Part shown: piece after piece, positions 1 to 53,058 of the stretch | How positions within the stretch are numbered: position 1 is the first letter of the stretch | Layout: the number at the start of each line of letters is the position of its first letter | Virus record (IMG/VR): IMGVR_UViG_3300011116_001007 | From: a virus | Lineage: Duplodnaviria; Caudoviricetes | Direction: 5' to 3' (one strand) | Length of the DNA stretch: 64,000 bases | Made by a program: the position numbers and the translations under genes | Notes under the pieces: generated by a model | Told to the model about the DNA's origin: nothing | Database searches by the model: none | The model's input: only the letters and a program-made list of their open reading frames with translations

Positions 1-561
1 CTCTCCGCTGCATGGTAATTTGGCACTCACACTAAATGTAACGTCTCTACAAAAGTCAATATCATCATGATATTTCCATGTATGCAGGTATTGTTTGAAT
101 TCAGTTGTTAGTTTTTGAGTGCCATTTGTCTCAAATGTAATTTCTTTAAGACCTTTCATCTTGGGATGTTTCAGCAAGTCTGGAAATTGTTTCTGCCATC
201 CCAGCAATGGTTCGCCTCCGGTGATAACCAAATGCTCATCGCGCCACTCGCCATGCGGAAGTATTTCTATAATACGTTCTACAATGGCATCTGTAGTCAG
301 CATTGGACTTAGGTCTTTGAAACGTGGATCCCAGCTGGCGTAACTGTCACAGCCTGTGCTTACTAATGGCAATTCATTGTATGTACGAAATTTTGTAGGA
401 TCAATGAATTCTGCTTCATCACTCAATTTTCCGCGTGGCATTCCAAAGCCTGCACATTTAAAGTTGCAGCCAAATGTACGTAAGAACACACTGGGCACAC
501 CCATGTAGCGGCCTTCGCCTTGTATGCTGTAGAATAGTTCTGCTATTTTAATTTTGCTCAT
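1..561 (-). CDS. queE: 7-carboxy-7-deazaguanine synthase QueE (radical SAM), 3' end runs off window
   Basis: Absent from the ORF track; manual translation from ATG 561 gives MSKIKIAELFYSIQGEGRYMGVPSVFLRTFGCNFKCAGF...VITGGEP...FETNGT...SVSAKLP, the QueE signature motifs. Confidence 0.93.
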   Translation of the reverse strand, partial: MSKIKIAELFYSIQGEGRYMGVPSVFLRTFGCNFKCAGFGMPRGKLSDEAEFIDPTKFRTYNELPLVSTGCDSYASWDPRFKDLSPMLTTDAIVERIIEILPHGEWRDEHLVITGGEPLLGWQKQFPDLLKHPKMKGLKEITFETNGTQKLTTEFKQYLHTWKYHDDIDFCRDVTFSVSAKLPCSGE

Positions 562-1265
562 AATCTTGTTACCTTGGTCATTCCTGAGTAGTTTGGATCT
601 TTATTTAGATTGATACTGACTTTGTGCATTTTAACACGAGTTTCAGATTTTGTCACCCATCCTGGTAACACTGCATCTAAGTAAGCCAAATGTTCTTCAG
701 GACTGGGGTGCGGATCAGGTCCGGGTTTGGGCCAGTTGTTTTTAAAAACTGTTTTATCGTATCCGGGTAAAATGCAATCTAGCACATTGCTGTAAAGTCG
801 CATGACATCACGATATTGACTCACATCATCGTCGTCATTGGGTCTTGCCATGAGTTCAACCATGCTTAAAAATTTCCAGTCAACTCCTGGACGTGATTCT
901 AACAATGTTTTAACAGCTTTGATATATGCTAAATCTCGTATTAAAAATCCTCGCTCATCAATATGTGAACGAATATATTCTGGATGATACACCGTTTTGG
1001 CAAAATATGCATTTCCCGGTGTATGCCAGCGATTGTCTACATATCTATCTTCACGATCTATACTGGTCCAACACACAACCACAGTGTCACCTGGACCAAA
1101 AGTATTGCGTTGATCACATTCCATTACTGAATTGAATATGTAGTGATTGCCGCCACCGGCCTGTCCCCAATTTTGTGTGTGATCAAACTCAGGCTCTAAA
1201 CAATCCACCCAAGTAGGCCAACGATAGTTGGTAAAACTACAACCAAATGCAAATAATCGGCTCAT
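558..1265 (-). CDS. SGNH/GDSL-like hypothetical protein
   Basis: FAFGCSFT block I and NWGQAGGGN block II; start at 1265 overlaps the upstream stop (ATGA). Confidence 0.55.
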   Translation of the reverse strand: MSRLFAFGCSFTNYRWPTWVDCLEPEFDHTQNWGQAGGGNHYIFNSVMECDQRNTFGPGDTVVVCWTSIDREDRYVDNRWHTPGNAYFAKTVYHPEYIRSHIDERGFLIRDLAYIKAVKTLLESRPGVDWKFLSMVELMARPNDDDDVSQYRDVMRLYSNVLDCILPGYDKTVFKNNWPKPGPDPHPSPEEHLAYLDAVLPGWVTKSETRVKMHKVSINLNKDPNYSGMTKVTRL

Positions 1266-2044
1266 GTTTTCCGAGCTTTGACCAGAAGGTGCCACCCAAG
1301 ATATTCTTTGATGGCATCTCGCATGTCAGCCGGCATGGCCTCAAACCAAGGTTCCAATTCATATCTACCTTGTTTGTAAGCCGGCACATCGTACATGAAA
1401 CAATGTGCCTGGCGCAAACGCTCAATATGAAAACGGTCGCCCAACAATGCATACACTTCTTCATTGGTGTAGGCCTTGGCATACGGGCAACCATTTTGTG
1501 CTTCAAATTGATCGAGACCTTTACGAATCATGCTGTACTTCCAGCTGTTTTTGGCGTATACCAAAAATCTAAATTCGCCGTGAGGCACCAACACGTCATA
1601 TGCATTTTGTATCATATCATCAATCCGTGGAAAGTGATGCATGACTCCGCAACTGTAAACCAAATCAAACTGGCCCAGGCCTTGGTATACCGCAGCATCA
1701 CTGGCATCGCCGCACACAAAGTTTCCATCCAGCCCTTCAACTTTGAATCGTTCTTGAGCTAATTTTACCGTGCGCGGGCTAATGTCAATAGCAGTATAAT
1801 CTGCACCGTATCGGGCAAATTCAGCAGCATCTGTTCCTATGCCACAGCCAATCTCTAACACACGTTTGCCTTGCCAAAGATGAAAGCTGGCAAATTCTCT
1901 TATGTGTGACTCCACTCGATATCTGCGTTCAGATACCTGTTGATAAAATTCCAATGTTCCTACTTCGCTGGTGCCATGTAAAATATTACAAGGTTGATTG
2001 TCCCAGTAGCGTATGATACGCTGTTCAAGTGTTTGGTCGTTCAT
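1262..2044 (-). CDS. Class I SAM-dependent methyltransferase
   Basis: VLEIGCGIGTD motif I, AIDIS, FDLVYSCGVMHH. Confidence 0.88.
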   Translation of the reverse strand: MNDQTLEQRIIRYWDNQPCNILHGTSEVGTLEFYQQVSERRYRVESHIREFASFHLWQGKRVLEIGCGIGTDAAEFARYGADYTAIDISPRTVKLAQERFKVEGLDGNFVCGDASDAAVYQGLGQFDLVYSCGVMHHFPRIDDMIQNAYDVLVPHGEFRFLVYAKNSWKYSMIRKGLDQFEAQNGCPYAKAYTNEEVYALLGDRFHIERLRQAHCFMYDVPAYKQGRYELEPWFEAMPADMRDAIKEYLGWHLLVKARKT

Positions 2045-2047
2045 TGA

Positions 2048-2893
2048 TTATCCTTCCATGATAGATCGTTTGATCTCCATGCTCCATTGTGATTGTTGAT
2101 GATTTACGTCATTGATCTTGAGTTTTTCCCAGGGGTCTTGTGTGCCTCTAAGTACGTTTTTAAAAAACTCAGTGCTCATTCCTATACTTTCCATGTATGC
2201 AGCAATTTTCCTACAATCGCTATATCGTAGTTCTATCACATCCGCGTATAAAAAATCTCTAGGGTCTTTGGGATTGCCTTCCAGCATGGGTCTGTTGTTG
2301 AAAGTAGCGTCTTGATTTTTTCCAGTGAGATCGTAACGTTCATGTGCCACATCAACAGGTATGCGTTCAAACACATCTAGTATGTAGGCCTGTTGACTCA
2401 GCCATGCATCAGAAATTTGATGCGGGCAAAGATATCCCAACAATTCCAGCCACTTGCGTGGCACAATGGGAAAAATACTGTAAGGATGTAAATTGTGTGT
2501 GCAGAATGCCAACAGTTTGAATTTACCTTCATGTTTCATAATTTCACTATCCCATGCAGGCGTCTGCATCACAGCATCGTCATTCCAAATGATATACCAA
2601 CGAGATTTGACCATGCGTGCCATTGCATTCACATATTCGTTCAGTCGAATATACCCCATGGGTTCAAATTTCATTGCGGTGTAGTTGGCTTTGATAGAAT
2701 CCAACCAGGGTTTCAAACTGGTATAAAAATAGTCTGTGCCCACAGCATCGTCCTGATCAAAACCCAGCATTAAGTATATTGACTTTGGGTCAGCTGCATT
2801 GTCGTACAGTGATTGTACACTTCGTCTCAGTGCAGTAGTACGCCCTCGTGTGGGCAACAGCACACTGATATCATACTTGAATTCAGTATCCAT
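2048..2893 (-). CDS. GT-A fold (GT2-like) glycosyltransferase, paralog 1
   Basis: ISVLLPTRGR start, IWNDDA DxD-like motif; start moved to ATG 2893 behind a GAGAG SD. Confidence 0.7.
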   Translation of the reverse strand: MDTEFKYDISVLLPTRGRTTALRRSVQSLYDNAADPKSIYLMLGFDQDDAVGTDYFYTSLKPWLDSIKANYTAMKFEPMGYIRLNEYVNAMARMVKSRWYIIWNDDAVMQTPAWDSEIMKHEGKFKLLAFCTHNLHPYSIFPIVPRKWLELLGYLCPHQISDAWLSQQAYILDVFERIPVDVAHERYDLTGKNQDATFNNRPMLEGNPKDPRDFLYADVIELRYSDCRKIAAYMESIGMSTEFFKNVLRGTQDPWEKLKINDVNHQQSQWSMEIKRSIMEG

Positions 2894-2920
2894 AAATTCT
2901 CTCACAATTATTTTATACAG

Positions 2921-4921
2921 TTAATACGTTTTTTTAATAGAAAAAGTACCTTGTGCTTTGGCAGCACCAGCACCGCGATGTGTACCTTTGAGATTTTCAA
3001 CTCCTACCAAATCCACTGTGGCTTTGCCAAAATTTCTGCGTCTTGCAAAATAAAACAACTCCAAAAATCGATTGCGGCTCATGGTTTTGTCTTCTGGAAA
3101 GTCCAAGCGATATGTTGTGGCAGTCTTCTGTAGAGCTTGGTTGAAACTCAAATAATCCCAAATATTATAGTCCAATTCAAGATTCATTGGATATTGATTT
3201 CTGTCGTTGTATTTGATGTAGTAACCTCTTTGCAGCTTCATCAAACTGGCCAACAAATCTTTGGGTAAGTCGTAACGTTGTAAAAATATTTCCAAGAAAT
3301 CATACAGTTCATCCACACGATCTTCTTGATGCATGTTCATACTGGTTCTATGAATGATATTCCAACCGTGTATCTCCACACCAATCTTGGGATGGTTAAT
3401 TCGACCAGTGGTCATCCAGTTGGAGAAATATTGCCTTGCCTCAGCTTCTTCCTTTTTTAACCAATCGTTGGTCAGAAAGTACGCAAATAAATCTTCATAG
3501 TAGTCGTTGTAACTTAGGCCTTTGTACTTGTTGATGAATCTAGCAACCAGAGTAGCAAATCCATTGATATGGAATGTGGTCTGGAACCACGAAAAGATCT
3601 GTGCATCCAACATCACTGGGGTAGGCATATCTTTGGTGCCTGTTATGACATCAATGCTTTCTTCAATGTGTTCCACACTGTAACTGCCGGCAAAGTAATC
3701 AGTAACAGGTTGACTGGTGATCTTGAACAGTTTCTTTTGCAACAAGTTCATTTCGGCGTTTTCCAACAACTGTGCCTGGAACACAGTGATACCAGTGTGC
3801 TGATTCAAATCATACAATGCATAGAAGTTTTTCTTCCATGATTCCAGTGACTCTCCGGGCAAACCAAGTATGAGTTCTGTGTAGGCAGGAATGTTGCGCT
3901 GGTCGCACAGCTCAAACACTTCTTCTAACTTGTTCATCTCCATGTTTTTTCGACGAATGTTTTCCAGCACATCCAAATCTAAACTTTGTACACTCAGTGT
4001 CAGGCCTTGGTTGAAGCCACGTGCGTCCAACAATTTCTTCACAATGTCTATGACTTCTTTCTTTTGATTTTTAGCCCAGGCCACACTGAATGTTCTCGGA
4101 GATCCGTACTTTTCTTGCATCTCAATGATCTTGTCTGCAATCATGCCATCACGTTCGGGGAACATACCAAAGTTGGCATCTGTAATTGAGATCCAGTCAA
4201 AGTTGTGTTTGGCCATCCATTCCAGTTCCTCAAACACACGTTCTAGTTCGAACTTCTTGACCTTGTTATAGGTCAGACTGCCCCAGTCACAAAATGTGCA
4301 AGCAAATGGGCATCCACGATTGGTTTCCAAAGTACCTTGCCATGTCACGTCAGGATGTTCGGCTATCATTTGATCAAAGATGCCTGCCAAGTACGGACTT
4401 GGCACTTCTTCTAATGATTCAATGCGTTTGGCATCTTGTGTCTTTACTGCTCGACCATCTCTGTTGATCAACACACCGGATACATTTTCCCAATCTTTGG
4501 TTTCAAAATGCTGTAGCACATTTTTGAAAGTTATTTCTCCTTCGTAGCAGATCACGAGATCTATAAAAGGTTCTTTCACAAACAAGTCAGGATCGGTAAT
4601 TGCAACTTCGGGGCCACCAAACACAGTCAACACAGCAGGATTTATTTCTTTGATTCGTTTGGCCAGTGCATAATTGTACCGATGATTCCATACGTAGGTG
4701 CTGAAAGTCACAATTTGATTTTGTGCTAGACGCTGTGCCAATGGTTCTATGGCATCTCTGCGCCAGATCCAATCAGTGGCTTCAAATCGTTCGCGGATCT
4801 CTGGGTCAGCTAGACTGTAACTCCATACTACACCAGCTGAGTAGGGCAGGTAATACGCATTGAACTCTTTGGGACCTTGTTGGAAATTGGGTTGGACCCA
4901 GGCAATTTTATGTTTCATCAT
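2921..4921 (-). CDS. Cobalamin-binding (class B) radical SAM protein
   Basis: N-terminal B12-binding-like domain (FSTYVWN...VFGGPE), RGCPFACTFC CxxxCxxC motif, ELILGLPGES. Confidence 0.88.
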   Translation of the reverse strand: MMKHKIAWVQPNFQQGPKEFNAYYLPYSAGVVWSYSLADPEIRERFEATDWIWRRDAIEPLAQRLAQNQIVTFSTYVWNHRYNYALAKRIKEINPAVLTVFGGPEVAITDPDLFVKEPFIDLVICYEGEITFKNVLQHFETKDWENVSGVLINRDGRAVKTQDAKRIESLEEVPSPYLAGIFDQMIAEHPDVTWQGTLETNRGCPFACTFCDWGSLTYNKVKKFELERVFEELEWMAKHNFDWISITDANFGMFPERDGMIADKIIEMQEKYGSPRTFSVAWAKNQKKEVIDIVKKLLDARGFNQGLTLSVQSLDLDVLENIRRKNMEMNKLEEVFELCDQRNIPAYTELILGLPGESLESWKKNFYALYDLNQHTGITVFQAQLLENAEMNLLQKKLFKITSQPVTDYFAGSYSVEHIEESIDVITGTKDMPTPVMLDAQIFSWFQTTFHINGFATLVARFINKYKGLSYNDYYEDLFAYFLTNDWLKKEEAEARQYFSNWMTTGRINHPKIGVEIHGWNIIHRTSMNMHQEDRVDELYDFLEIFLQRYDLPKDLLASLMKLQRGYYIKYNDRNQYPMNLELDYNIWDYLSFNQALQKTATTYRLDFPEDKTMSRNRFLELFYFARRRNFGKATVDLVGVENLKGTHRGAGAAKAQGTFSIKKTY

Positions 4922-5778
4922 GTACTTATTGATTCTGCAGTCGCCGGTTTGCCAAAGTGTGGATTGTTAAATTGTTTCATTTGATTGTTAGGGTCGTTTT
5001 CTAGCAGTCGCTGCCACGGCTCTTGAGTACCTTTAAACACATTTTCGAAATATTCAGTACTCTGCCCATGCTCTTGCATGTACATGGCCAATTTGGCACA
5101 GTCACCTTGACGTATTTGAAGATTTGGTAAACTATGGAAATCATTTGGATCCAGTGGTTTGCCTTCTAAAATATGTCGGTCCAAGAAAGTGGCATCCCCG
5201 TTGTTGCCAGTAAGATCAAATCGATCGTGTAACACATCAACTGGAATTCTGTGATAGATATCCAACAGGTATGCTTGTTGACTCACCCACCCATCTTGTG
5301 TGCTGTGCGGAGAGATATAACCCAACAAATCAAACCAAGCACGAGGTATAGTGGGAAAGATGCTGTAAGGATGCATGTTATGAGTACAGAAGCCCAACAA
5401 TTTCAAATGCGGATCTGTGTAGCTCATGATCACACTGTCCCATCCTTTGGTTTGCATCACAGCATCATCATTCCAGATCATCAACCATTCGCTGTCAGAC
5501 AGCTTGGCCAATGCATTGTTGTATTTGTGCAGATTCACATAGCCTAACCGATCAAACCGCATGGCCACGTAGGTGACTGATTGAGAATCTAACCAAGGCT
5601 GCAATGTTTCTTTAAAAAAACTTGTGCCTATTTCATCGTCCTTGTCAAATGCAAACATCAATTGCAATTTTTTAGGATCATCTGCCAGTTCTACTAGACT
5701 GCGTATGCTGCGGTCTAGACTGGCAGTGCGGCCACGAGTGGCCAATAGCATGGCTATGTTATAACGATGTTCAGTCAT
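4918..5778 (-). CDS. GT-A fold (GT2-like) glycosyltransferase, paralog 2
   Basis: LLATRGR, IWNDDAVMQT, HPYSIFP blocks shared with 2048-2893. Confidence 0.7.
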   Translation of the reverse strand: MTEHRYNIAMLLATRGRTASLDRSIRSLVELADDPKKLQLMFAFDKDDEIGTSFFKETLQPWLDSQSVTYVAMRFDRLGYVNLHKYNNALAKLSDSEWLMIWNDDAVMQTKGWDSVIMSYTDPHLKLLGFCTHNMHPYSIFPTIPRAWFDLLGYISPHSTQDGWVSQQAYLLDIYHRIPVDVLHDRFDLTGNNGDATFLDRHILEGKPLDPNDFHSLPNLQIRQGDCAKLAMYMQEHGQSTEYFENVFKGTQEPWQRLLENDPNNQMKQFNNPHFGKPATAESIST

Positions 5779-6253
5779 TGAATTCATGGTCCTCTCTGTG
5801 TCCTTGACGTCCTGCCATGTTTGAATCTGTTTCACGAACTTCTACTCTGGTACACCACACACGTCGGGCTTCTTCGCTGCCGCAGTTGGGCAAGAAGATA
5901 GTGTTAATGTATTCATACAAAAAGTCAGCAATGCCTTCACAACCAGTGCGTTCTACTTCAGTAATCTTGGCCAGTTTCAAGCGACCCAGTTCCAACAGGT
6001 GCTCACGCATGGGATCATCTTGTGCCACTAACAAAGTATGGTCAAACCATTCTTCTAGTTTTTCTTTGAGCGGTTTCAGTCCACCAAAGTCAGTGACCCA
6101 GTTACGTGCGTCCAGGGTGTCTGCTTCAAATTCGAAGTGAAAGCTCATTGCGTAACCATGTATGAGATTGCAATGACTATCCGCACGCCATTGACGATAG
6201 GCCACAGGGCCAATTTGCCTGTAAGTTTTTGTTGAAAAATATTTCTTTGCCAT
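5771..6253 (-). CDS. queD: 6-carboxy-5,6,7,8-tetrahydropterin synthase QueD
   Basis: CNLIHGY (CxxxHGH-like), DFGGLK, FDHTLL, EVRET T-fold motifs; deazaguanine gene context. Confidence 0.9.
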   Translation of the reverse strand: MAKKYFSTKTYRQIGPVAYRQWRADSHCNLIHGYAMSFHFEFEADTLDARNWVTDFGGLKPLKEKLEEWFDHTLLVAQDDPMREHLLELGRLKLAKITEVERTGCEGIADFLYEYINTIFLPNCGSEEARRVWCTRVEVRETDSNMAGRQGHREDHEFND

Positions 6254-6330
6254 GATTTTCTCCTATGTTAGATTATAGCATAGGCGGCGGAGTTTGTATA
6301 GCGGGACGATGCCGATAGGCCGCTGTATGG
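6254..6330 (-). promoter_or_regulatory. Structured 5' leader of queD (riboswitch candidate)
   Basis: GC-rich stem AGCGG/CCGCU and SD-sequestering stem CCUAUG/CAUAGG; ATAAATA late-promoter motif just upstream (6332-6338). Confidence 0.5.
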
Positions 6331-6334
6331 ATAT

Positions 6335-6727
6335 TTATGCTGGCTGTTTATAGCCATCTGTTTTGTAGTTGGCCTGCCCAGGTATGACCCCACGCACACC
6401 ACCTATTGGATCAGTACAATCACCGTGCCGCCGAGGGATCAAATGTATGTGTGGATACATCACAGTCTGACCAGCAGCGGTGCCAGAATTAAAACCAATA
6501 TTGTATCCATCATATTCTCCCTGTCTCACCATTCTTTCGCCATATCGTAATGCACTTTCAAATGCATCATTGATCACTGTGAGAGTATTGTAGTTTGGTA
6601 CGAACAGCAAATGTCCCGGTGCGACTGGATAACGATCTTGAAACACGGTGACGTGAAAATCACTGAGGTCTTTAAGATGTTGATCCCACGGTGCTATGCC
6701 TGTTTGTTGTGCTTCTGCTAAATCCAT
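6335..6727 (-). CDS. HIT family nucleotide hydrolase
   Basis: YPVAPGHLLFVP and GQTVMYPHIHLIPR histidine-triad motif. Confidence 0.9.
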   Translation of the reverse strand: MDLAEAQQTGIAPWDQHLKDLSDFHVTVFQDRYPVAPGHLLFVPNYNTLTVINDAFESALRYGERMVRQGEYDGYNIGFNSGTAAGQTVMYPHIHLIPRRHGDCTDPIGGVRGVIPGQANYKTDGYKQPA

Positions 6728-8007
6728 TATAAATCTTTCGTATAAAAAGTGTATTGACCCAGGATGAGATTTTCGTACATTAGCACTTTGTAACTATTGT
6801 TACGGGTTTTGTACAATGTCAAATATTGCATTGATAAATCAGTTGATGTTTTACTAAATGATACAGTATCTTGCTTCCATAATATTGCTGCTGGCGCAGC
6901 CTTACCATCGCCAACGATTAGAGATATTTTTGAACCAGCATCAACCACACGAGAATACATTGCAAAAGCAAAATCATTTGTTTGTGAAGGAAAGTATGTG
7001 TTGGTTTGATCAACAAAGTTAAAATTGCCCTGATTGACCAACACCGTAAATTTACCAGTTGGAGTTGTGGATCTAAAATTGCCATTGTCAAGCAATACCA
7101 CATCCTGGTCACCATCTTTATCTATGTCAACAATCACTACACTAACTATATCGTGAGTGAGATTCATATTGTCTCGTTCTTCACTGCCGGGTAATCCACG
7201 AGTGGTAATATAATTCATGTTTGAATCAAACACTCTCACATAAGCACTGTAATTCCCTTCGGTGGCAACATCGGTTGTGATAATACCAATGTTTCCGGTA
7301 GTTGAATCTTTGACAATGCTGCATGCACCGGCGCTGCTGATGGGTGTGTTGGTAAGCGAGTGATTTACCGTGAATGACCTTGACCCGTTGTTTACCAAAA
7401 TGGTATTGGGGCTGGTTCCATTTGCGCCCATCACAATATCTTTGCGGCCAGTGCCTCGCAAATCTCCTGCACATGCTGCATGTGCCCATACAGATTCTGT
7501 AAAGTCCTGTCGAGTCCATGTTGATCCATTGTTCCAAAACATCACACTGGTGGCCGACCGGCTGGGCACATCCTGAAACCCACCAACAAAAATATCCGGT
7601 CGGCCATCATTATCAAAATCCTCAATGAGAATTCGTTGTGCGCCAGCAATCATATTATTTGATCCCAGCAGTGCATCCGTGCGATCTAATAACGTGCCAT
7701 TTTCTTGTTGTATGAGAATTTTTACAGGCACGTTAGCATTACGAACACCAGACCAACCTGCAGGCATCACCGCCCATCCAGTGACCACAACATCCTCTAA
7801 TCCATCTCCGTTCAAATCAGCCACTGCAACATTGAATGAATGGCTCACACTGTTTTCGTTTTGATAAGCCATCACTTTGTTAGCAGTATTGATCACAGCA
7901 GTTTGGCTAGGCACTGGACTAGGAATTGAGTTATTGCTTGCTGTTCCGTCACCGCCGCCACCACACGCGGATAACAGTATAGTTAACAAAATAAAAATCT
8001 GTTTCAT
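6727..8007 (-). CDS. Lipoprotein with FG-GAP/VCBS repeats (beta-propeller)
   Basis: Signal peptide with lipobox LSAC-GGGG; repeats ADLNGDGLEDVVV, DFDNDGRPDIFV, DIDKDGDQDVVL. Confidence 0.8.
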   Translation of the reverse strand: MKQIFILLTILLSACGGGGDGTASNNSIPSPVPSQTAVINTANKVMAYQNENSVSHSFNVAVADLNGDGLEDVVVTGWAVMPAGWSGVRNANVPVKILIQQENGTLLDRTDALLGSNNMIAGAQRILIEDFDNDGRPDIFVGGFQDVPSRSATSVMFWNNGSTWTRQDFTESVWAHAACAGDLRGTGRKDIVMGANGTSPNTILVNNGSRSFTVNHSLTNTPISSAGACSIVKDSTTGNIGIITTDVATEGNYSAYVRVFDSNMNYITTRGLPGSEERDNMNLTHDIVSVVIVDIDKDGDQDVVLLDNGNFRSTTPTGKFTVLVNQGNFNFVDQTNTYFPSQTNDFAFAMYSRVVDAGSKISLIVGDGKAAPAAILWKQDTVSFSKTSTDLSMQYLTLYKTRNNSYKVLMYENLILGQYTFYTKDL

Positions 8008-8039
8008 AATGTAATCTAAATTGATTAGTGATACTAGAC

Positions 8040-8068
8040 ATTATAACTGAAACATAATTTTGAGTCAA
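8040..8068 (-). promoter_or_regulatory. sigma70 promoter for lipoprotein gene
   Basis: TTGACT-17 bp-TATAAT. Confidence 0.75.
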
Positions 8069-8097
8069 CCTACCAATTTTGTCTCTTTTGAAAAGAT

Positions 8098-8886
8098 TTA
8101 TCTTGGTGCAAATTCTTGTTGTAGTTTGATATTGTCAAAGAACTCTTTCTTTGTGCTTTGATCAGTCTGGAATGCACCTTTGAGCACAGTGGTCTGTGTG
8201 AGACTTGAATGTGCCATGATACCACGATTCTCACAGCAGCCATGAATGGCTTGTACATACACGGCCACATCTTCTGCGTCAGTTGCCTTCATTATTTCTC
8301 TGGCAATGTCGTTGCAGAGTTCTTCCTGCAAAGTACCGCGCCTAGCGCACCACTGAGCAATACGAGTATACTTAGACAACCCAATAAGTTTTTGTGCAGC
8401 GATAATTCCAATGTAGGCAACACCACTAACAGGCTGATGATGGTGACTGCACATACTACGTAACTCGCTACGCACCACCAACATGCCTTCATATCGGTCC
8501 TGCGAATCGTTTGGAAATGCTGTTGCGTCTGGTGCTGGTTCATATCGTCCTGCCATTATCTCGTTGTAATACATCTTGGCCAAACGTCGAGCAGTGCCCT
8601 TACTGTTTGGATCATTTTCACGATCAATCAGCAGTGCGTCCAGCACTTTTTCAAATGCTTCTGCGGCTTCATTGATCAAGTGTTCCTTAGCTGATTCACT
8701 TACGTAGTCTGAGATGTTATCGCCGGCCCAGAATCTCTTGCCATCTGTTTTCATTCGATCGCGCAATGCGGCACTGAGATATTTGCCAGTGGTACCTGGT
8801 TCTTTTTTTACATATAGTTTTTGTTCCATAGGAACGAATTCTTGGTCTTGAGGAGTCAGTAGTGGATCAGGTACAAAGTCGGTCAT
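8098..8886 (-). CDS. folE: GTP cyclohydrolase I
   Basis: SMCSHHHQP, IGLSKYTRI, LQEELC, HGCCENRG motifs. Confidence 0.95.
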   Translation of the reverse strand: MTDFVPDPLLTPQDQEFVPMEQKLYVKKEPGTTGKYLSAALRDRMKTDGKRFWAGDNISDYVSESAKEHLINEAAEAFEKVLDALLIDRENDPNSKGTARRLAKMYYNEIMAGRYEPAPDATAFPNDSQDRYEGMLVVRSELRSMCSHHHQPVSGVAYIGIIAAQKLIGLSKYTRIAQWCARRGTLQEELCNDIAREIMKATDAEDVAVYVQAIHGCCENRGIMAHSSLTQTTVLKGAFQTDQSTKKEFFDNIKLQQEFAPR

Positions 8887-8887
8887 G

Positions 8888-9478
8888 TTATAGTTCGATG
8901 GTTATGGTTCTTAAATCTGGATACGGCACAAACACAGGCTCTTGAGATTGATATTGTTCCAACAATTCCAATCCACGTACTGCATCTTCAATTGAAGGTT
9001 TGTAATGATATCCTATCTGGAAAGTTTTTTGTGACTGCCAGGGCACAGTATTTAGATCGCGACCATCATAACGTTGTTTTATCATGGTATTGTATGCTTT
9101 CTTGTTATCTAACAGTATAGCACCGCCATGGCCTATTTGTAAAGGTTTTGTATGTCCGAAACTCACGCATTGCATCTGTCCAGCTTGATACATGCCAGCT
9201 TCCAAGCGCCTGGCGCTGTCCCATACTCTGGTATACACAAAGTTATATTCGCCTGTCCAAGTTTGTTCAGGTTCGTCCATGTACACATAGTCAATGCCCA
9301 ATTTGTGCATGGTCATTGGTATGCTGAGATAGGTGTAAGGAGTCATTTTAAGACCGCGTACCCGATCATAACGCAAGCACAGTTCAATTGCATGGGTGCA
9401 GCAATCAGTCATGATTGCATAAGGTGCACCAGTGAATTTGGCCAGTGCTTTTTCAAACTCAAAAATTTTATCGAACAT
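8888..9478 (-). CDS. Short DegT/DnrJ/EryC1/StrS-type PLP aminotransferase
   Basis: FEKALAKFTGAPYAIMTDCCTHAI, WDSA, SFGHTK PLP-lysine, GGAIL; only 196 aa. Confidence 0.75.
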   Translation of the reverse strand: MFDKIFEFEKALAKFTGAPYAIMTDCCTHAIELCLRYDRVRGLKMTPYTYLSIPMTMHKLGIDYVYMDEPEQTWTGEYNFVYTRVWDSARRLEAGMYQAGQMQCVSFGHTKPLQIGHGGAILLDNKKAYNTMIKQRYDGRDLNTVPWQSQKTFQIGYHYKPSIEDAVRGLELLEQYQSQEPVFVPYPDLRTITIEL

Positions 9479-10412
9479 ACCAGTTCCAAGAATGTTGTAT
9501 CATATTATCCAATGTGTATTTTTGCCAATGACCGTACTGATCAAATTTATCTGAACTTGCTGTCAACACAGCTGGATCTCCGGCACGTTTAGGCCCTGAT
9601 CTAAAATTCAAAATTTGTTTTGTGATTCGTTGTGCAGCGTCAATAATTTCTAAATTACTCACACCTTGGTTGCTGCCAAGATTATACACACCAGCAGATA
9701 CCTTGGCATCCAATGCTGCAACATGTGCAGCAGCAATGTCTTCCACATGCACATAGTCTCGCACACAAGTACCATCATTGGTAGGATAGTCAATACCGTT
9801 GAGCACAAATTCTTGTCGATCTCTAATGCTTTCTAACACCCGCGAAATGATATGTGTACCACCAGGTTCACTGCCATGGCGTGCCTGGCTGTCGGCACCG
9901 CAGGCATTGAAATATCGAAATGCTACATAGTCTAGTTTATACGCCCGATGATAACTGGCCAGCACCTGTTCAATCATGCGCTTGCTTTCACCGTACGGAC
10001 TCAACGGTTCGCAAGGATCCGTTTCAGCACACGGAGTCATAGTGGGCTCACCATATACTGCTGCACTTGAACTGAAGATAAATCTGGTCTTGGGCAAAGC
10101 AGCAAGTACAAGATCCAACATGTGGATGGTCTTAATAACATTATTGTGATAGTAGTCAGATGGATATCTAATACTGGGGCCTACTAGGCTTGTGCCAGCA
10201 CAATGGATAATGGCATCAGGAACAAATTGTATCAATTTTTTACCAGCTGTGTCACTGTCAAAGTCGGCCAGCACAAACTGATTGAATACTTCTTTGAGAT
10301 GCGACGGGCACGGTCTGCGATCAATACCCAGGACCTCGTGCCCGGCATCTTTCAATGCCAGTGCAATTTGCCCACCGATGTAACCGGCCGAACCAGTGAC
10401 CACTACTTTCAT
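9468..10412 (-). CDS. galE: UDP-glucose 4-epimerase / NAD-dependent sugar epimerase
   Basis: TGSAGYIG, FSSSAAVYG, YGESK, FRYFNACGAD, RDYVHVED, RAGDP. Confidence 0.92.
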   Translation of the reverse strand: MKVVVTGSAGYIGGQIALALKDAGHEVLGIDRRPCPSHLKEVFNQFVLADFDSDTAGKKLIQFVPDAIIHCAGTSLVGPSIRYPSDYYHNNVIKTIHMLDLVLAALPKTRFIFSSSAAVYGEPTMTPCAETDPCEPLSPYGESKRMIEQVLASYHRAYKLDYVAFRYFNACGADSQARHGSEPGGTHIISRVLESIRDRQEFVLNGIDYPTNDGTCVRDYVHVEDIAAAHVAALDAKVSAGVYNLGSNQGVSNLEIIDAAQRITKQILNFRSGPKRAGDPAVLTASSDKFDQYGHWQKYTLDNMIQHSWNWYVR

Positions 10413-11611
10413 GATTCAATCTTTACCACTTGATATTTTTCGTGGGCCACATGATCACGATATCTGTTGCCAGCACGATTCCATTGTTCTCCTGTGCCCT
10501 GCAATATGTCCACCACACGATCCACTGTGCCGTTGTTCCAGTCACTGATCAATCCCATGTTGTGATGCGGATCACGCAAGAGATTTTGCAGTTTGTGATA
10601 GGCATCATCTATTGACCAAGGAACGTAAAGCCTGTTGGGATCGTTTGAGAAAGTTTCGGGGAAACTACGATAGGCAGGATAAAGCACATTACAGCCAAGA
10701 GTGTCAGCCTCGGAAACTGTGTTAGAGACCCAGTCTTGTAAAGCACAATTAAACAACACACGAGTGTTATTGAGGTGAGCGTAGTAATCATTTTTTGTAA
10801 TGTTGTCGTAAATTTTCAACTGTCCGGCTGCTTCCATCCTGCGAGCACGAGTCACATACTCTGGGTTGTTGCTGCGTAACTCACCACCGCTGTAGATCAC
10901 AAACTCACATGGTTCGCTTGTGAGTTCGCCATACATGTCAATCAGATCCATAAAAAAGCCCGGTTGCTTTTCTTGATCAAATCTTGCTGCAAAACCCACA
11001 CGTCTTGGGCGCGCCCCAAATGGTCGAACGTTGCCTGCGCCACCAATGCGTTCCAGCACTTCTTCTTTGCCAAACGCAAGACCGGAGATGTTGTAGATAG
11101 GAGCGGTCCATCCCGCAATACGCATGTGAGCAACCATTTCTTCGTTGGTAGCCAACACGCCTGTCACAAACTGGTTGACCATTTTTTCGTATGTGCTCAT
11201 CCAACCTGCCATGCCCCAAACATGTACAAAGTCGTCAGGATCAATGGCTTGTGCCAGGCAACGTACCCATACCTGTGGACGTAATTCTGCAGGCACCTGG
11301 TCCATGATATATGGCAAACTTTCAATACCTGGCTGGAACATGTCTTCAAAATAGATTACATCTTCGCTGGTGACTTCGCCTTGTTGCATGAGTCTCACCA
11401 GATTCATCATTTGACTCATACCAAAGTAACTGCGGCCGTGTGCATCCAGTACTTGACCAACCACAATCTTTTGGCTGTTGTCTAGGGTGAGTCCAGGCAC
11501 ATATACCACGTCAAGTCCTCGACGGTCAAACACACGCCGGTTCCACTCAGTGAGTTGTAATGTATACCGAGCCTCGTAGCTTTCCAAACCCATGTAAAAT
11601 AATTTTCTCAT
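10409..11611 (-). CDS. GT-B fold glycosyltransferase
   Basis: C-terminal GT-B features: RFDQEKQP, LFNCALQDWVSNTVSEADTLGCNVLYP. Confidence 0.7.
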   Translation of the reverse strand: MRKLFYMGLESYEARYTLQLTEWNRRVFDRRGLDVVYVPGLTLDNSQKIVVGQVLDAHGRSYFGMSQMMNLVRLMQQGEVTSEDVIYFEDMFQPGIESLPYIMDQVPAELRPQVWVRCLAQAIDPDDFVHVWGMAGWMSTYEKMVNQFVTGVLATNEEMVAHMRIAGWTAPIYNISGLAFGKEEVLERIGGAGNVRPFGARPRRVGFAARFDQEKQPGFFMDLIDMYGELTSEPCEFVIYSGGELRSNNPEYVTRARRMEAAGQLKIYDNITKNDYYAHLNNTRVLFNCALQDWVSNTVSEADTLGCNVLYPAYRSFPETFSNDPNRLYVPWSIDDAYHKLQNLLRDPHHNMGLISDWNNGTVDRVVDILQGTGEQWNRAGNRYRDHVAHEKYQVVKIES

Positions 11612-11633
11612 TGTAACAATCCTTTGTTGAAGT

Positions 11634-12506
11634 TTAACATTTTTCTAGTAAGTTGTAAAGAGTTTTAGAATCTGTTGGAAAGATATTTAACCTATCACAG
11701 CGTATCTCATACCCATGTGTTCGCAGTCGTTGTTGAACTATGGCCTCAGCTATGACATGGATGGATTGCCAAGAAAATTCTTGTTGATTGATTGTTGATT
11801 CAACAATCTGATCTAACAAGTTGAATTCATCCAGAATATATTGTTGGGCCAGTTGCCATTTTGTGGCAAAGGACCCAAGATTGCCATCTAATGTAAGACC
11901 GCAATGGTCAATCATTTTAATAAATGTTGACTCTGTATCATACAACAGGTCTGTGTTGACAATTTTCAGAAAGTCGCCGGATACCTGATTTTGTGATTGT
12001 ATCCATTCTTGCACCCATTCTGCATAAAACAAACTGAACCATTCTCGGAGTTCCCAAGGCTGCATTTCCTTCCAGCTTTTGTACGCCGGGTTCCACTGGA
12101 TTATGTTATGAGTGTTGCTGTCACAAAAAATTCCCAGGCCGCACTCTAATCCCACACAAATTTTATAGTATTGAAATAATATATTAAGTTCTGCGGATCT
12201 TAAATTGCTGGCATGAATCAAAATTGATCGACTTTGTTTGTCAATGTACAACTTGTAATAATCTAATATTTCAGGTAGGTGCAGAGTTTTAAAAGGATAT
12301 ATAGGAGTGGTTATCGAATCATGTTGTATTTTTTTTAAATTGTCCAACAAGTTTTGTTGGTAGATATGCAGTTCTTTAGAATAGCTGTGCATGCTCCCGT
12401 CGGCAAGAATGACTCCATTGATAGAATCATGCTCTTTGGTAAATGTTCTTAGTACATATTCTATTGTAGTTCCAAACATTCCGGGAACAAAAAACACATG
12501 AATCAT
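11634..12506 (-). CDS. Hypothetical protein (P-loop/sulfotransferase-like N-terminus)
   Basis: 292-codon ORF; VFFVPGMFGTTI N-terminal loop; AT-richer than neighbours by eye. Confidence 0.45.
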   Translation of the reverse strand: MIHVFFVPGMFGTTIEYVLRTFTKEHDSINGVILADGSMHSYSKELHIYQQNLLDNLKKIQHDSITTPIYPFKTLHLPEILDYYKLYIDKQSRSILIHASNLRSAELNILFQYYKICVGLECGLGIFCDSNTHNIIQWNPAYKSWKEMQPWELREWFSLFYAEWVQEWIQSQNQVSGDFLKIVNTDLLYDTESTFIKMIDHCGLTLDGNLGSFATKWQLAQQYILDEFNLLDQIVESTINQQEFSWQSIHVIAEAIVQQRLRTHGYEIRCDRLNIFPTDSKTLYNLLEKC

Positions 12507-12727
12507 GCACGATGCCCGGCCAATCTACGTGCATCTTCCCACCACATGTTCTTGGCATTCTTGCCTTGGGCATACTTGGTGAACTGTTGCCAAGCATAAC
12601 TTTTGAAGTTGTATAGATCCGCTTCGTTGTAGCGATATCCATAGTCTTTGCAAAACTCTTCGTATTGTTCAAGGTGGTTGAAGATCTCAGCAACGTGAGG
12701 GTTGGTACGGAATGCAATTTTTGCCAT
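12503..12727 (-). CDS. Small hypothetical protein
   Basis: 74 aa ORF with SD, stop overlaps next start. Confidence 0.6.
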   Translation of the reverse strand: MAKIAFRTNPHVAEIFNHLEQYEEFCKDYGYRYNEADLYNFKSYAWQQFTKYAQGKNAKNMWWEDARRLAGHRA

Positions 12728-12738
12728 GTTATTTCCTA

Positions 12739-13191
12739 TTAGATTTTAATTGATTGAGCAGGATAAGTGAGATTGTATTGTATTACAGCGCCGTTCTCAC
12801 CATCTTCGGATACGTTGATCCATACAGCACGGTCTGGATATCTTGCAGCGATTTGATCGTAAAGTTCATCGCTGATCATTTCACAACTCTTGTAATTGAG
12901 TTCAAGTGTGCCGCCAGCATAGAGATTTTCTAGCCAGCGTTTGAACTGAATGAATTCAATGTCACGATCGTTGTGGAATACTTGTATGGTCACTTCAAAG
13001 TGAAATATGTGTCTGTGTGGACTGGCCAAAAAGCTCACATCATACTCATCACCTGTGGCCAATGCAGGATCTGTGGCTGCTGCTGGATAACAATGAATGC
13101 CTTCTTTTTGGAACCGTACAAAAATTGTGCGTACAGCACGATCCTTGATACGTTGTCGTGTTTCTACAAGTGCATGATCGCGTTCGTTCAT
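12739..13191 (-). CDS. QueD-like T-fold protein, DpdL-like (putative CDG decarboxylase)
   Basis: FLASPHRHIFHF (LxxxHRHxF), DIEFI, SCEMI, VSEDGENGA; sits two genes from dpdA. Confidence 0.6.
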   Translation of the reverse strand: MNERDHALVETRQRIKDRAVRTIFVRFQKEGIHCYPAAATDPALATGDEYDVSFLASPHRHIFHFEVTIQVFHNDRDIEFIQFKRWLENLYAGGTLELNYKSCEMISDELYDQIAARYPDRAVWINVSEDGENGAVIQYNLTYPAQSIKI

Positions 13192-13694
13192 AATGTTTCG
13201 TCCTTGGTATATTTAGACCAGTCAGTGAAATGGTCTCGGTTTTGTAAATCATGTATGCTGTGACACCAAACACCTGGATTGGTTGCAGCAAAATCTCGGT
13301 CGTCTAGTTTGAGTGTGGCATTGTAGCCCAACAATTTGATATATGGTAGCTTGACTGATATCATTGGAATAAAGTTGTGATCTTCAGTCAGGCAGGATTC
13401 CAACAAGCCTTCTACGCATTTGACATCAATATCTAACGTACACAGATATCCTTTTTGTAAAAAGGGTAAAATCATATTTTCCCATTGTGTCCACTTCACA
13501 TAGTCGTTAGTGTCAATGTTTGGAAAACTCTGGTTGGCACCAAAGTAAATGTGCTCGCAACCTTGTATATAAGCAGCGATATCATCCTCTGATTGAACGC
13601 CTACCACAAACAATGTTTTTTTGCCCAATGCAGGTGTGTGTTCTACTTCTGTGCCGGTAAAGAATGCAGTATTCTCGTGACCTTCTCGGTTCAT
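13188..13694 (-). CDS. Hypothetical protein of dpd cluster (possible cysteine-less QueE-like barrel)
   Basis: 168 aa; FFTGTEVE..GKKTLFVVG, HIYFGAN, ISVKLP. Confidence 0.45.
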   Translation of the reverse strand: MNREGHENTAFFTGTEVEHTPALGKKTLFVVGVQSEDDIAAYIQGCEHIYFGANQSFPNIDTNDYVKWTQWENMILPFLQKGYLCTLDIDVKCVEGLLESCLTEDHNFIPMISVKLPYIKLLGYNATLKLDDRDFAATNPGVWCHSIHDLQNRDHFTDWSKYTKDETL

Positions 13695-13754
13695 ATCTGA
13701 TCCTGTTCAAGTTGTTGTAATGCTTGTAAGTTTAACTGATCTTGGTAGTCTGTG

Positions 13755-14462
13755 TCAACCTTGATTGTGTTGTATTTCTTGATGTTGGTTGTCTCTTTCA
13801 AAATCGTCAACTATTTTTCTAAAAATTTTAGCAGCTCTATTTCTTTTTTCTTCGAACTCAGGTCCTTGCAACACCGTTTTCTGCCATTCCTCATACAAAA
13901 TATGCAACGCAATTTCTATATCTTGAGTTACTGTTCTATCTATGAATGCGGCCAACTTAATAAATTCTGGTAAGAATTTTTGGTAACCGTTGATAATACT
14001 AGCAAGACTAATTTTATAAACTGATGGATCATTCTTCAAATCAAAACCGTTTTCGAAATTTTTGAAAGTTTGGAAAGAATGTTTGTACTCCCCATTCAAT
14101 ATGACCCAATCTAAATTATTTTCATGATCTATAAAAATGTTAACTGCGGTGTCATCTTTACCGGTAATATTTTTAATATTATTCGCTGGGGCAGGATGCT
14201 TGATCGAAACCCCATTGCCATTGGGGCCTATGTCCCAGTGTGGTTTCACAACATCGTACTCCTTGATCGCACCCTCAAAATCAATCCAGGTAATATACCT
14301 GGATTGATCTTTATAAGTCAATAGGTCCAGTTTTTCTTCCAACGTGTTTGGTATATTTTTTCCGTTAGACCACACATAAGTGTCGTCTAGTAAATTTATG
14401 CACCGGGAAAGAAAATTCCCCGCTGCCCCTGGTATAAAATGCAAAGCAATAAATCGTTTCAA
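13755..14462 (-). CDS. AT-rich accessory protein (P-loop/sulfotransferase-like N-terminus)
   Basis: 235 aa; IALHFIPGAAGNFL; visibly AT-rich; start overlaps dpdA stop. Confidence 0.5.
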   Translation of the reverse strand: MKRFIALHFIPGAAGNFLSRCINLLDDTYVWSNGKNIPNTLEEKLDLLTYKDQSRYITWIDFEGAIKEYDVVKPHWDIGPNGNGVSIKHPAPANNIKNITGKDDTAVNIFIDHENNLDWVILNGEYKHSFQTFKNFENGFDLKNDPSVYKISLASIINGYQKFLPEFIKLAAFIDRTVTQDIEIALHILYEEWQKTVLQGPEFEEKRNRAAKIFRKIVDDFERDNQHQEIQHNQG

Positions 14463-16018
14463 ACTGATTGCTCCAGTTGTTCCAATTTTGTTGTGCCGAG
14501 ATCGTCAGGGTCAGTGTCAACCTCTACCATGTCAAACAATGCATTGAATTGAGTTCTTGCATTCATGGCCTTTTTGCCTTTGAAGCCGCGTGTGCCCACC
14601 ACATCCATCCAGTAGTTGCTGTAGTGCTCGATGATGTCCATGCTGTCTTGCTTGGTCGGCGCAGCAAAGATAGCTTCCACAATGTCATGGAATCGAGCAT
14701 GATCACCCTTTTCATTCCACAGCATGCGCGGCCATTTGGTGCCAGAATCATATTCACGATTGGCACGTTGTACTGACTCCAAGTGTGTCCACACATTGTG
14801 ACCCATCAGCAGTGCATATGAGAAACTATCCCACGATGTCTTGCCTTCTTTGCCAATCTTGTTTAGATCACCAGGCTTGTAGATACAGATGTCCTTCATG
14901 GTCAGGTGGCGACTGATAGGGCTCTCATCAAAGTGATTGACCAATCCATCTGCCACCACAGCCTGTCCATACGGGCGTGTGTCTGTGCTGTATTTCTTGT
15001 CGTCAGCAATGGGACTCATCCTATAAGACCATTTGCTGTTGTGTGTGGTATCAATTTCATGATACACCTGCCCATTGGCAGTGGCCAAGAACGGACTGGC
15101 GCAATCAAAGCTGATGGTAAAAGCAGGATTCACATGCTTTCTTACTGCACGTTGGATGGCAGTCAACAGCACAGCCCATTCCAATTTGCTTGTGCCCAAG
15201 AAGTGCATCCAATCATGCACGCCTTCTTGCAAGAGATTGTCATAGCGCAAAGTGACTAGACGTCGGAGCACAAGATGTACATCGCACATGTTCTGCCCGC
15301 CCATACTCCACCCATCAAAGTGTGTGTCAGGATACACAGCAGGATCACAAAAGTGTTTCATCTCCTCATACCAAGCATCGGCACTGGTATGATTGTCGCC
15401 TTGCAACACATTCAAAATCTTGGTGCCACCATTGCGAACACCTTTGCGATGCCGCATGAAGTATTCGTTGTTGAACTTGGTTGCATCCACTGCTTCTTGC
15501 AGCGTGGTGATCTGGCAGGCCCGGCTGGCTTTTTTATCGTGTATGACCCAGGTTGGAATATCAAGTGTCATGCAATAATCAGAAACATTGTCTAGCCAAT
15601 TGAGAATTGCCTCACGTTTCTTTTGTGCTTTGGCACAGCCCGAGTTGGCTTTCCAGTCACCTTCCCACAGACCCTTGGCGATCTGGAATCCACCTGAGTC
15701 GCCCAGCATGAACGTGCCTGGCTCACGACTGCGAACCATGTCTTCTGACCAGTCTTGCTTGTTGAGATCCAGGTTAGCATGCCCACCTGAATACAGGCTC
15801 CACTTGTAGGGAAACAATGCTTTTTGACTGTTGAGCCAGTTCAGTTGTTCCATGTCTGGTATTCCTGCGGGCATACGTGCAGGATCCACATAAGGTCCAT
15901 TTACTGGATCTCGTTGCTTGCCCACAAAGGTGGCGTAAAAGCCGGATATGGCCGGCAAGAACACAGCATAGTCATTCTGTTTGGCAGTGAGATTGTCTTG
16001 GATTAGATCTTGAGTCAT
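14459..16018 (-). CDS. dpdA: DNA guanine transglycosylase (TGT-fold), DpdA/DpdA2-like
   Basis: GDSGGFQ, CMTLDIP, VLQG, WSMGG, HFLG, SFDCASP TGT motifs; folE/queD/queE context. Confidence 0.85.
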   Translation of the reverse strand: MTQDLIQDNLTAKQNDYAVFLPAISGFYATFVGKQRDPVNGPYVDPARMPAGIPDMEQLNWLNSQKALFPYKWSLYSGGHANLDLNKQDWSEDMVRSREPGTFMLGDSGGFQIAKGLWEGDWKANSGCAKAQKKREAILNWLDNVSDYCMTLDIPTWVIHDKKASRACQITTLQEAVDATKFNNEYFMRHRKGVRNGGTKILNVLQGDNHTSADAWYEEMKHFCDPAVYPDTHFDGWSMGGQNMCDVHLVLRRLVTLRYDNLLQEGVHDWMHFLGTSKLEWAVLLTAIQRAVRKHVNPAFTISFDCASPFLATANGQVYHEIDTTHNSKWSYRMSPIADDKKYSTDTRPYGQAVVADGLVNHFDESPISRHLTMKDICIYKPGDLNKIGKEGKTSWDSFSYALLMGHNVWTHLESVQRANREYDSGTKWPRMLWNEKGDHARFHDIVEAIFAAPTKQDSMDIIEHYSNYWMDVVGTRGFKGKKAMNARTQFNALFDMVEVDTDPDDLGTTKLEQLEQSV

Positions 16019-35085: not shown

Positions 35086-35100
35086 GATGTTTTATTTACC

Positions 35101-35124
35101 AAAAAAAAGAGCCTTGCGGCTCTT
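35101..35124 (-). terminator. Intrinsic terminator
   Basis: AAGAGCC-GCAA-GGCUCUU followed by a U6 run. Confidence 0.85.
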
Positions 35125-35193
35125 AGTGCTGGTTACGAGTTCCAGCAGCCTCTCAATCTTGAGGTCGGTTTAAATGGGGTTTTACCCAGACAA

Positions 35194-44251: not shown

Positions 44252-44308
44252 TAAAAGTATGCTGTTATTTACAGAGTATAACAGGTCAGCAGATTTTTTG
44301 CAACCAGT

Positions 44309-53009: not shown

Positions 53010-53058
53010 GTTATTTCTATTTGTTTGAAGTGTGGTGTGCTATTATTTACCGAGCATG

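Follow-up and report, generated by a model that had tools for sequence, protein, structure and literature searches.

A putative translational switch built on an H-type pseudoknot in the queD leader of uncultured freshwater phages

The virus record IMGVR_UViG_3300011116_001007 (Duplodnaviria; Caudoviricetes) carries a queD gene preceded by a short, structured leader, which is the subject of this analysis. The window refers to the whole stretch of DNA analyzed, 64,000 nucleotides in length. Within it, an 81-nucleotide gap on the minus strand (6334–6254) separates an open reading frame (ORF) of the HIT family (6335–6727) from queD, whose product matches Pfam PF01242 (E = 4.7e-16) and PHROG 2389, "QueD-like" (E = 5e-43). 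An initial annotation had listed a series of sequence elements at 6254–6338 of the minus strand, all of which were found by direct reading. Based on comparison with related phages, the queD leader is, on balance, probably a cis-acting translational switch that operates on an H-type pseudoknot, most probably a riboswitch. Its helices (P1 and P2), loops (L1 to L3) and expression platform, including the strands that surround the Shine-Dalgarno (SD) sequence, are predicted to be arranged as follows.

6320–6324, minus strand: 5ʹ strand of P1, AGCGG, pairing with 6300–6304
6314–6319, minus strand: L1, CCUAUC; consensus across the family N-C-U and then 0–8 variable nucleotides (alignments A2 and A3)
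6307–6313, minus strand: 5ʹ strand of P2, with GGC(A) at 6313–6310, U6309 mismatched, and C6308 and G6307 extending the helix
6305–6306, minus strand: L2, U6306 and C6305; C6305 is invariant, unpaired and just 5ʹ of the P1 3ʹ strand
6300–6304, minus strand: 3ʹ strand of P1, CCGCU, with covariation
6290–6299, minus strand: L3, AUACAAACUC; consensus N-U-A-N-A-N-A-Y-U-C
6283–6289, minus strand: 3ʹ strand of P2, with the pairs C6289-G6307 and G6288-C6308, an unpaired C6287, and CGCC (6286–6283) paired to GGC(A)
6279–6284, minus strand: anti-SD strand, CCUAUG, overlapping the P2 3ʹ strand at C6284 and C6283
6262–6267, minus strand: 3ʹ arm of the sequestrator, CAUAGG, overlapping the SD AGGAG (6264–6260)
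5771–6253, minus strand: queD, encoding a PTPS/QueD-family T-fold enzyme of 160 amino acids; AUG at 6253–6251

The leader motif is present in more than 260 uncultured-phage loci, once per phage genome, before a gene of the PTPS/QueD family (in three loci, one gene away). A protein search of IMG/VR with the QueD of the window returned 309 relatives, from which 80 loci were kept; the same leader was recognized by eye in 79 of these, the exception being L068, and a DNA-pattern scan added 120 further loci. A second, motif-blind retrieval relied on QueD protein similarity alone, with a QueD of a different subfamily as the query, and 77 of its 80 loci carry the motif. A PTPS-family ORF lies directly 3ʹ of the motif in 177 of 181 parsed instances. 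The PTPS genes behind the motif all belong to PF01242 but span at least four subfamilies with a mutual identity of only 38–58%. A covariance model built from 106 distinct aptamers detects a single copy in the 64-kb window (55.9 bits, against 12.7 for the runner-up) and likewise a single one in each of five phage records (214–353 kb), directly before the record's only PF01242 gene. The element is thus gene-specific and single-copy rather than a repeated promoter/terminator cassette.

The predicted fold consists of a 5-bp P1 and a P2 that connects the 3ʹ side of the P1 loop with the nucleotides directly after an invariant UCYGC. Among the protein-retrieved loci, P1 pairing reaches 99.1%, and four of its five pairs change on both sides; its variants include AGCGG/CCGCU, UGCGG/CCGCA, AGAGG/CCUCU, AGUGG/CCACU, AGUCG/CGACU, ACCGG/CCGGU and AUCGG/CCGAU. 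The G-C pair that closes P1 is invariant, with the closing G present in 45/45 protein-retrieved aptamers. P2 is made up of 4–7 variable pairs plus a C-G and an R-Y pair beyond a U.C mismatch. It is paired in 82–93% of cells, and every variable pair changes on both sides, as in GGCG/CGCC, GGUG/CACC, GGCU/AGCC, GACGC/GUGUC and AUGGCAU/AUGUCAU, and additionally in AUGACUU/AAGUCAU, AUGACGC/GUGUCAU and GGCAA/UUGCU. The C-G pair of the extension is kept in 105/106 sequences, and the R-Y pair occurs as A-U in 101 and as G-C in four (including this window), the one unpaired cell belonging to a shifted row, L105.

This covariation is evident in several statistical comparisons. In a MAFFT alignment of the 106 distinct aptamers, which was not fitted to structure, P1 and P2 together pair in 92.1% of cells versus 75.7% after shuffling (0/500 shuffles as high), and slid controls reach 34–52%. 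The selection filter biased one P1 pair in this alignment, a concern removed by the unbiased protein-retrieved set, in which the full pseudoknot is paired in 95.6% of cells versus 73.1% when shuffled, both-sided changes occur in 10 of 12 pairs, and the covariation score is 0.466 versus 0.132. Alignment A1 set P2 out of register and was excluded from the pair counts. When the register was fixed, cognate tails paired over 3.43 nucleotides, compared with 2.70 ± 0.12 for permuted tails (0/2000 permutations as high), and a register-free search for the best helix between loop and tail gave 3.90 versus 3.79 permuted, barely above. The slid controls, together with the large number of independent pair types, speak against an artefact, and the pseudoknot RNA, as predicted from these sequences, almost certainly exists.

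Covariation, which the initial annotation had proposed as a check, was strong in hundreds of loci, but the competing stems that it placed at the core of the leader gave way to a different architecture. The aptamer instead comprises P1 and the loop-to-tail P2, the best-supported pairing, which the annotation had not seen. A helix of GCGGC with GCCGC, said to compete with P1, is clade-specific, as P1 turns to AGAGG, AGUGG or UGCGG with no matching change in CYGC. The suggested pairing of the 5ʹ GCCUAU copy with the SD is likewise confined to the clade of this phage, with L1 reading UCU.., CCU.. or ACU.. elsewhere.

The invariant positions of the aptamer are mostly unpaired and include the U of the mismatch, the C ahead of the P1 3ʹ strand, A's and a U-C in L3, and the C that follows the fixed pairs. 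The C equivalent to C6305 is found in 45/45 distinct aptamers from protein-based retrieval, and across all of IMG/VR there are 0 matches with another nucleotide at this position versus 156 loci with C. The invariant C suggests a ligand with a guanine-like face. In L3, three alternating A's and the terminal U-C are invariant in the 45 distinct aptamers, whose helices vary freely. The first nucleotide of L1 can be U, C or A, and the C-U that follows is conserved. Additionally, a weak local alternative pairing of G-N-C with G-N'-C was detected (z = 3.4).

Downstream of the aptamer, the 3ʹ strand of P2 serves also as the 5ʹ strand of the sequestrator, so that P2 and the sequestering helix are mutually exclusive. 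In 130 of 134 distinct platforms, the minimum free energy (MFE) fold of the platform alone pairs the P2 3ʹ strand with the region from SD to AUG instead. The start is hidden by at least four sequence solutions: CCUAUG/CAUAGG, which covers the SD in this window; UGUCGUC/GAUGGCA and GYCAUUG/CAAUGGC, which cover the AUG; and CUCUAUU/AAUAGAG. The P2 loop strand often resembles the AUGGCA start region, and the competing helices are near-isoenergetic (medians of -6.0 and -7.3 kcal/mol). Competition between the pseudoknot and the start-site-hiding helix is a likely basis for translational switching. Because the P2 3ʹ strand otherwise pairs with the SD or AUG, formation of the pseudoknot should expose the start site, a pairing scheme that implies ON logic. 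The initial annotation was right in describing a structured, gene-specific cis leader whose CCUAUG/CAUAGG hairpin buries the SD: the pairing is present, and the hiding of SD or AUG is kept in the same 130 platforms. Burial of the SD upon ligand binding, however, is the opposite of what the wiring implies.

The leader also contains promoter-like elements, both upstream of P1 and farther into the leader.

6332–6338, minus strand: ATAAATA box, containing the TAA stop (6337–6335) of the HIT-family ORF
6295–6300, minus strand: -35-like hexamer TATACA, overlapping L3; the promoter spans 6300–6272
6272–6280, minus strand: extended -10 TGcTATAAT in the loop of the sequestering hairpin, 17 nucleotides downstream of TATACA

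The pattern TGnTAnnnT occurs in 100/134 platforms versus approximately 3 expected. Among 100 type-A leaders, the first T and the A at position two of the -10 are present in 100%, the final T in 95% and the full TATAAT in 70%, with the nucleotides beyond the -10 varying, and the spacer between the -35 and -10 is 17 (86 leaders) or 18 nucleotides (14 leaders). The embedded sigma70-type promoter is conserved and probably real. Transcription from it would start in the 3ʹ arm, downstream of the anti-SD strand, and yield RNAs that escape sequestration. The initial annotation had reasoned that an embedded extended -10 could leave the stems untranscribed. The promoter is indeed conserved, but it does not remove the RNA element. 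The leader lies in a co-directional array with no upstream terminator, and contigs from RNA libraries cross it. This long array holds the HIT-family ORF, queD, FolE, the QueE-like gene, and glycosyltransferase-like and B12-radical-SAM genes. No terminator was found upstream of the leader on the minus strand, which makes read-through into the leader plausible. Contigs from metatranscriptome libraries of three freshwater studies run from the HIT end through the leader and past the queD start; they represent small shares of their runs and are uninformative on starts, strand or expression level.

Upstream of P1, TAA[AG]TA lies within 30 nucleotides in 104/134 distinct leaders, compared with 1.9% of random 30-nucleotide windows, and mostly ends 5–9 nucleotides before the helix. 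This TAAATA box may be a phage promoter of the late type or the 5ʹ boundary of the cassette; T4 late promoters offer a parallel. Elsewhere in the window, GTAAATA(A) is found shortly before gene starts in the gaps 35086–35193, 44252–44308, 53010–53058 and 60912–61028, one copy directly following a hairpin that resembles a terminator and carries a T-run. GTAAATA(A) is a possible promoter box specific to the phage and akin to the TAAATA that precedes the aptamer. Near-consensus sigma70 promoters are located on the minus strand in the gaps 8008–8097 and 44252–44308 (TTGACT-17-TATAAT, before an FG-GAP gene, and TTGCAA-17-TATACT), which suggests that host RNA polymerase reads parts of the array.

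Two further genes of the same pathway context lie near queD.

8098–8886, same strand as queD: FolE
1–561, at the window edge, same strand as queD: partial QueE-like radical SAM gene

In the first 16,018 nucleotides of the window, FolE, QueD and the QueE-like gene are interleaved with B12-radical-SAM, methyltransferase, glycosyltransferase-like, DegT aminotransferase and epimerase genes. Several ORFs within 11634–16018 matched no Pfam, PHROG or NCBIfam model, and DpdA could not be confirmed in 1–16018. The 64-kb window also encodes a family-B DNA polymerase and a Lon-like protease, which point to a large phage.

The genes adjoining the motif vary in a few loci. In L144, L085 and L157, which are exceptions among the 181 parsed instances, the PTPS gene is the next one after an intervening small gene, which is, respectively, a cupin (6409–6750, minus strand), an 85-amino-acid ORF (6345–6602, minus strand) and a 243-amino-acid ORF (4432–5163, plus strand); in these loci the switch would govern a two-gene unit. 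The PTPS proteins of L084, L092, L124, L128, L130 and L195 carry varied N-terminal extensions of 10–70 residues ahead of the T-fold core, either misassigned start codons or real lineage-specific additions. In L068, unrelated sequence containing two TATAAT boxes takes the place of the leader, and in L215, L218 and L223 the motif is absent and queD directly abuts the upstream ORF. These motif-less close homologues of QueD could serve as natural "deletion" controls in comparative work. The 524-kb record IMGVR_UViG_3300027749_002876 has two queD loci with different leaders, L053 and L054, at 26.6–33.1 kb and 496.6–503.0 kb, and may combine two related phages in a chimeric or concatenated assembly.

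Among 185,579 species genomes, only three motif matches were found, all of them phage-type cassettes on contigs of two metagenome-assembled genomes (MAGs). A Haliscomenobacter MAG contributes two leader-PTPS cassettes (L206 and L207, on NZ_JBBAKG010000001.1, 183 kb, and NZ_JBBAKG010000058.1, 39 kb) and a Chitinophagales MAG contributes one (L208). They could be phage contigs that ended up in a bacterial bin, or they could hint at the host; Proteobacteria are the better fit to the sigma70-type promoters and strong SDs. Neither megablast nor blastn, run with the region and the leader as queries on 50,697 phage records, gave a match, and the motif was found in no cultured phage. The closest cultured QueD homologues, those of Acidovorax phage ACP17 (70%) and of Xanthomonas phages X1 and BUDD (approximately 62%), have no space for a leader. 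In the five large motif-bearing phage records, Pfam searches returned only partial, weak QueC-like matches with no full QueC, and no match for TGT.

Three features of riboswitches are seen in the queD leader: covarying helices, invariant unpaired nucleotides, and a platform with mutually exclusive pairing. Transcripts that contain the aptamer could come from upstream read-through or from the TAAATA box, and in these the sequestering helix would keep queD silent unless the pseudoknot forms. The effector appears rather more probably to be a small molecule than anything else. A small molecule with a guanine-like face would probably stabilize the pseudoknot and turn expression ON. In the context of FolE, QueD and QueE, candidates are 7-carboxy-7-deazaguanine (CDG), 7-deazaguanine, preQ0/preQ1, guanine and the pterin substrate dihydroneopterin triphosphate (H2NTP). 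Transcripts from the embedded sigma70-type promoter, starting after the anti-SD strand, would be exempt from this control. A more specific model is offered tentatively, namely, a new phage-specific riboswitch class that would combine a preQ1-I-like pocket with ON wiring, sense a guanine-faced intermediate of the FolE-QueD-QueE pathway (CDG, 7-deazaguanine or the pterin substrate), and use the promoter in the hairpin as a bypass for early expression.

Several points weigh against the general explanation, a pseudoknot-based switch that is probably a riboswitch. ON control of a biosynthetic gene by a purine of its own pathway would be unusual, and the SD is what preQ1 riboswitches occlude or bury (PMC11625349). 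The conserved internal promoter may allow many queD mRNAs to bypass the aptamer, and the RNA-library contigs across the leader may stem from contaminating DNA. In this window, P2 in the family register has an A6310.C6286 mismatch, and an alternative register, CGGC (6314–6311) with GCCG (6288–6285), is possible. The single-sequence MFE of -15.4 kcal/mol is no different from that of shuffled sequences (z = 0.06); this value comes from folding without pseudoknots and is uninformative, since the key helix is a pseudoknot. With folding of the single sequence at chance level, it is comparison that provides the evidence for function. Moreover, all sequences come from related uncultured freshwater phages, and shared ancestry inflates the shuffle statistics.

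Of the other explanations, the one that survives best, although it is unlikely, is that the same switch is run by a macromolecule, either an RNA-binding protein (QueD itself or a phage translational regulator) that recognizes the invariant loops or a ribosome that terminates on an upstream ORF. Invariant unpaired nucleotides suit a protein site equally well as a ligand pocket. The stop of the upstream ORF often lies 4–13 nucleotides before P1, within reach of a terminating ribosome, and the G-N-C/G-N'-C pairing would complete a 1:2, 2:3, 3:4 layout reminiscent of an attenuator. However, the distance from stop to P1 ranges from -1 to 48 nucleotides and 22/134 leaders have no ORF that ends nearby, which indicates that ribosome coupling is not conserved. 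The 46-nucleotide pseudoknot, with its invariant C stacked on an invariant G-C pair and its A-rich L3, has the layout of the preQ1-I ligand pocket (PMC11625349). Furthermore, the element accompanies four divergent PTPS subfamilies in neighborhoods that otherwise differ, although no candidate partner gene was sought.

It is improbable that the leader has no effector at all and that queD is instead timed by a pair of promoters, in the manner of T4 gene e and I-TevI, with read-through transcripts silenced by the hairpin, translatable mRNA made from the promoter inside it, and the pseudoknot acting as a constitutive structural, stability or tuning element. The promoter evidence is what speaks for this explanation: the -10 in the hairpin loop is very well conserved, lies at a spacer of 17–18 nucleotides from a -35-like hexamer, far exceeds its expected frequency across the platforms, and has canonical sigma70 counterparts in other intergenic gaps of the window. 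Two promoters nevertheless leave unexplained both the invariant unpaired nucleotides and the covarying second helix, which competes exactly with the sequestrator in every lineage. Moreover, the aptamer is kept where the -10 is weak or absent, as in type B (element in 11/29) and L181.

An ordinary, divergent preQ1-I riboswitch that binds preQ1 or preQ0 and turns queD off is very improbable. The que-pathway gene context would suit it, as would the 5-bp P1 with a G-C floor, the invariant C that is mostly part of a "UC", the A-rich L3 and the H-type fold (PMC11625349). The Rfam model for preQ1-I, RF00522 (gathering score 39 bits), is nevertheless silent, with no match at E ≤ 10 on 111 nucleotides of the window or on 106 nucleotides of the AGAGG/CCUCU variant L213. 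In the MAG with two motif copies, it gives only sub-threshold matches (≤22 bits), all away from the motif sites. L1 lacks a conserved U(U), L3 is 10 nucleotides long and ends in an invariant UC, and P2 has 7–10 layers. The 3ʹ strand of P2 is the anti-SD rather than the SD, which makes the wiring opposite, and the lack of a full QueC in the five large records counts weakly in the same direction. The Rfam scan suggested by the initial annotation, run on 2.2 kb and 111 nucleotides of the window and on variant L213, matched no family, including preQ1-I, -II and -III, and produced only chance matches to snoRNA and miRNA models. One match to preQ1-II was rejected because it consists solely of the unpaired ends of that model. 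The annotation's view that the leader is unlike the preQ1 classes is therefore upheld by Rfam, but not by the architecture, which does resemble preQ1-I. Finally, a purely DNA-level cassette, in which a terminator-like hairpin and a promoter in PeSL-like order have no RNA function, is hardly credible despite the presence of a stem-loop followed by a sigma70-like promoter, given one copy per genome that is always at PTPS, no U-tract after P1, and covariation between loop and promoter spacer (P2) that has no DNA-level rationale.

To our knowledge, phage-encoded riboswitches are rare. No description of the motif was found in the searchable literature, nor was any phage riboswitch that controls a DNA-modification pathway found described there. 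If the proposed control is real, the queD leader would be the first riboswitch known to govern DNA hypermodification. Should it bind a metabolite, it would represent a new class or sub-class of the smallest known riboswitch fold with inverted logic, would reveal which pathway intermediate large lake phages monitor while they replace guanine in their DNA, and would provide an ON-type aptamer of approximately 46 nucleotides for engineering. The layering of TAAATA box, aptamer, sequestrator and embedded sigma70 promoter would amount to compact temporal and metabolic control of one cistron in a long operon.

The queD leader shares features with several known systems. In T4-type phages, PeSL cassettes consist of a stem-loop followed by a sigma70-like promoter in intergenic gaps, and they are multi-copy and not gene-specific. 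The queD leader has the same order of stem-loop and sigma70-like promoter in a gap but, unlike PeSL, is single-copy and tied to PTPS. In T4 gene e (lysozyme) and I-TevI, a hairpin that hides the ribosome-binding site on read-through transcripts contains a promoter, and the transcripts from this promoter lack the 5ʹ arm and are translatable. The queD leader similarly has a promoter inside the hairpin that hides its ribosome-binding site. However, the embedded promoter is late in T4 and sigma70-like, of the early type, in the queD leader, which additionally has an upstream covarying pseudoknot that would compete for the 5ʹ arm. Like preQ1-II, preQ1-III and THF-II (the folE motif), which are cis-regulators of que or pterin genes that read a guanine-like ligand face, the leader precedes a gene of this group; those RNAs are HLout pseudoknots or a long hairpin, and the leader has no Rfam match to any of them.

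The architecture of the leader resembles that of preQ1-I, whose layout is an H-type fold in which P1 has a G-C floor, a conserved C precedes the P1 3ʹ strand, and L3 is A-rich (PMC11625349). Both are small H-type pseudoknots upstream of a gene of the queuosine/7-deazaguanine pathway, with translational control predicted for the queD leader as well. The queD leader also has a 5-bp P1 closed by a conserved G-C pair, an A-rich L3, and, just 5ʹ of the P1 3ʹ strand, a strictly conserved C, which is the specificity base in preQ1-I and is mostly preceded by U as in type I. L1 of preQ1-I starts with a conserved, ligand-contacting U(U)C, whereas that of the queD leader is N-C-U plus a variable insert. 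The L3 of preQ1-I is short and leads straight into P2; in the queD leader it has 10 nucleotides, among them invariant A's at alternating positions and a UC at the end, and two fixed pairs plus a mismatch come before the variable part of P2, which as a whole is longer, at 7–10 layers. The P2 3ʹ strand of preQ1-I includes the SD (OFF), whereas in the queD leader it is the anti-SD or anti-AUG strand in 130/134 platforms. In further contrast to preQ1-I, the motif was found only in phage-type DNA, that is, in IMG/VR contigs and three phage-like contigs of two MAGs. The queD leader is thus a candidate riboswitch class with a preQ1-I-like pocket that, by the features tested, lies outside RF00522.

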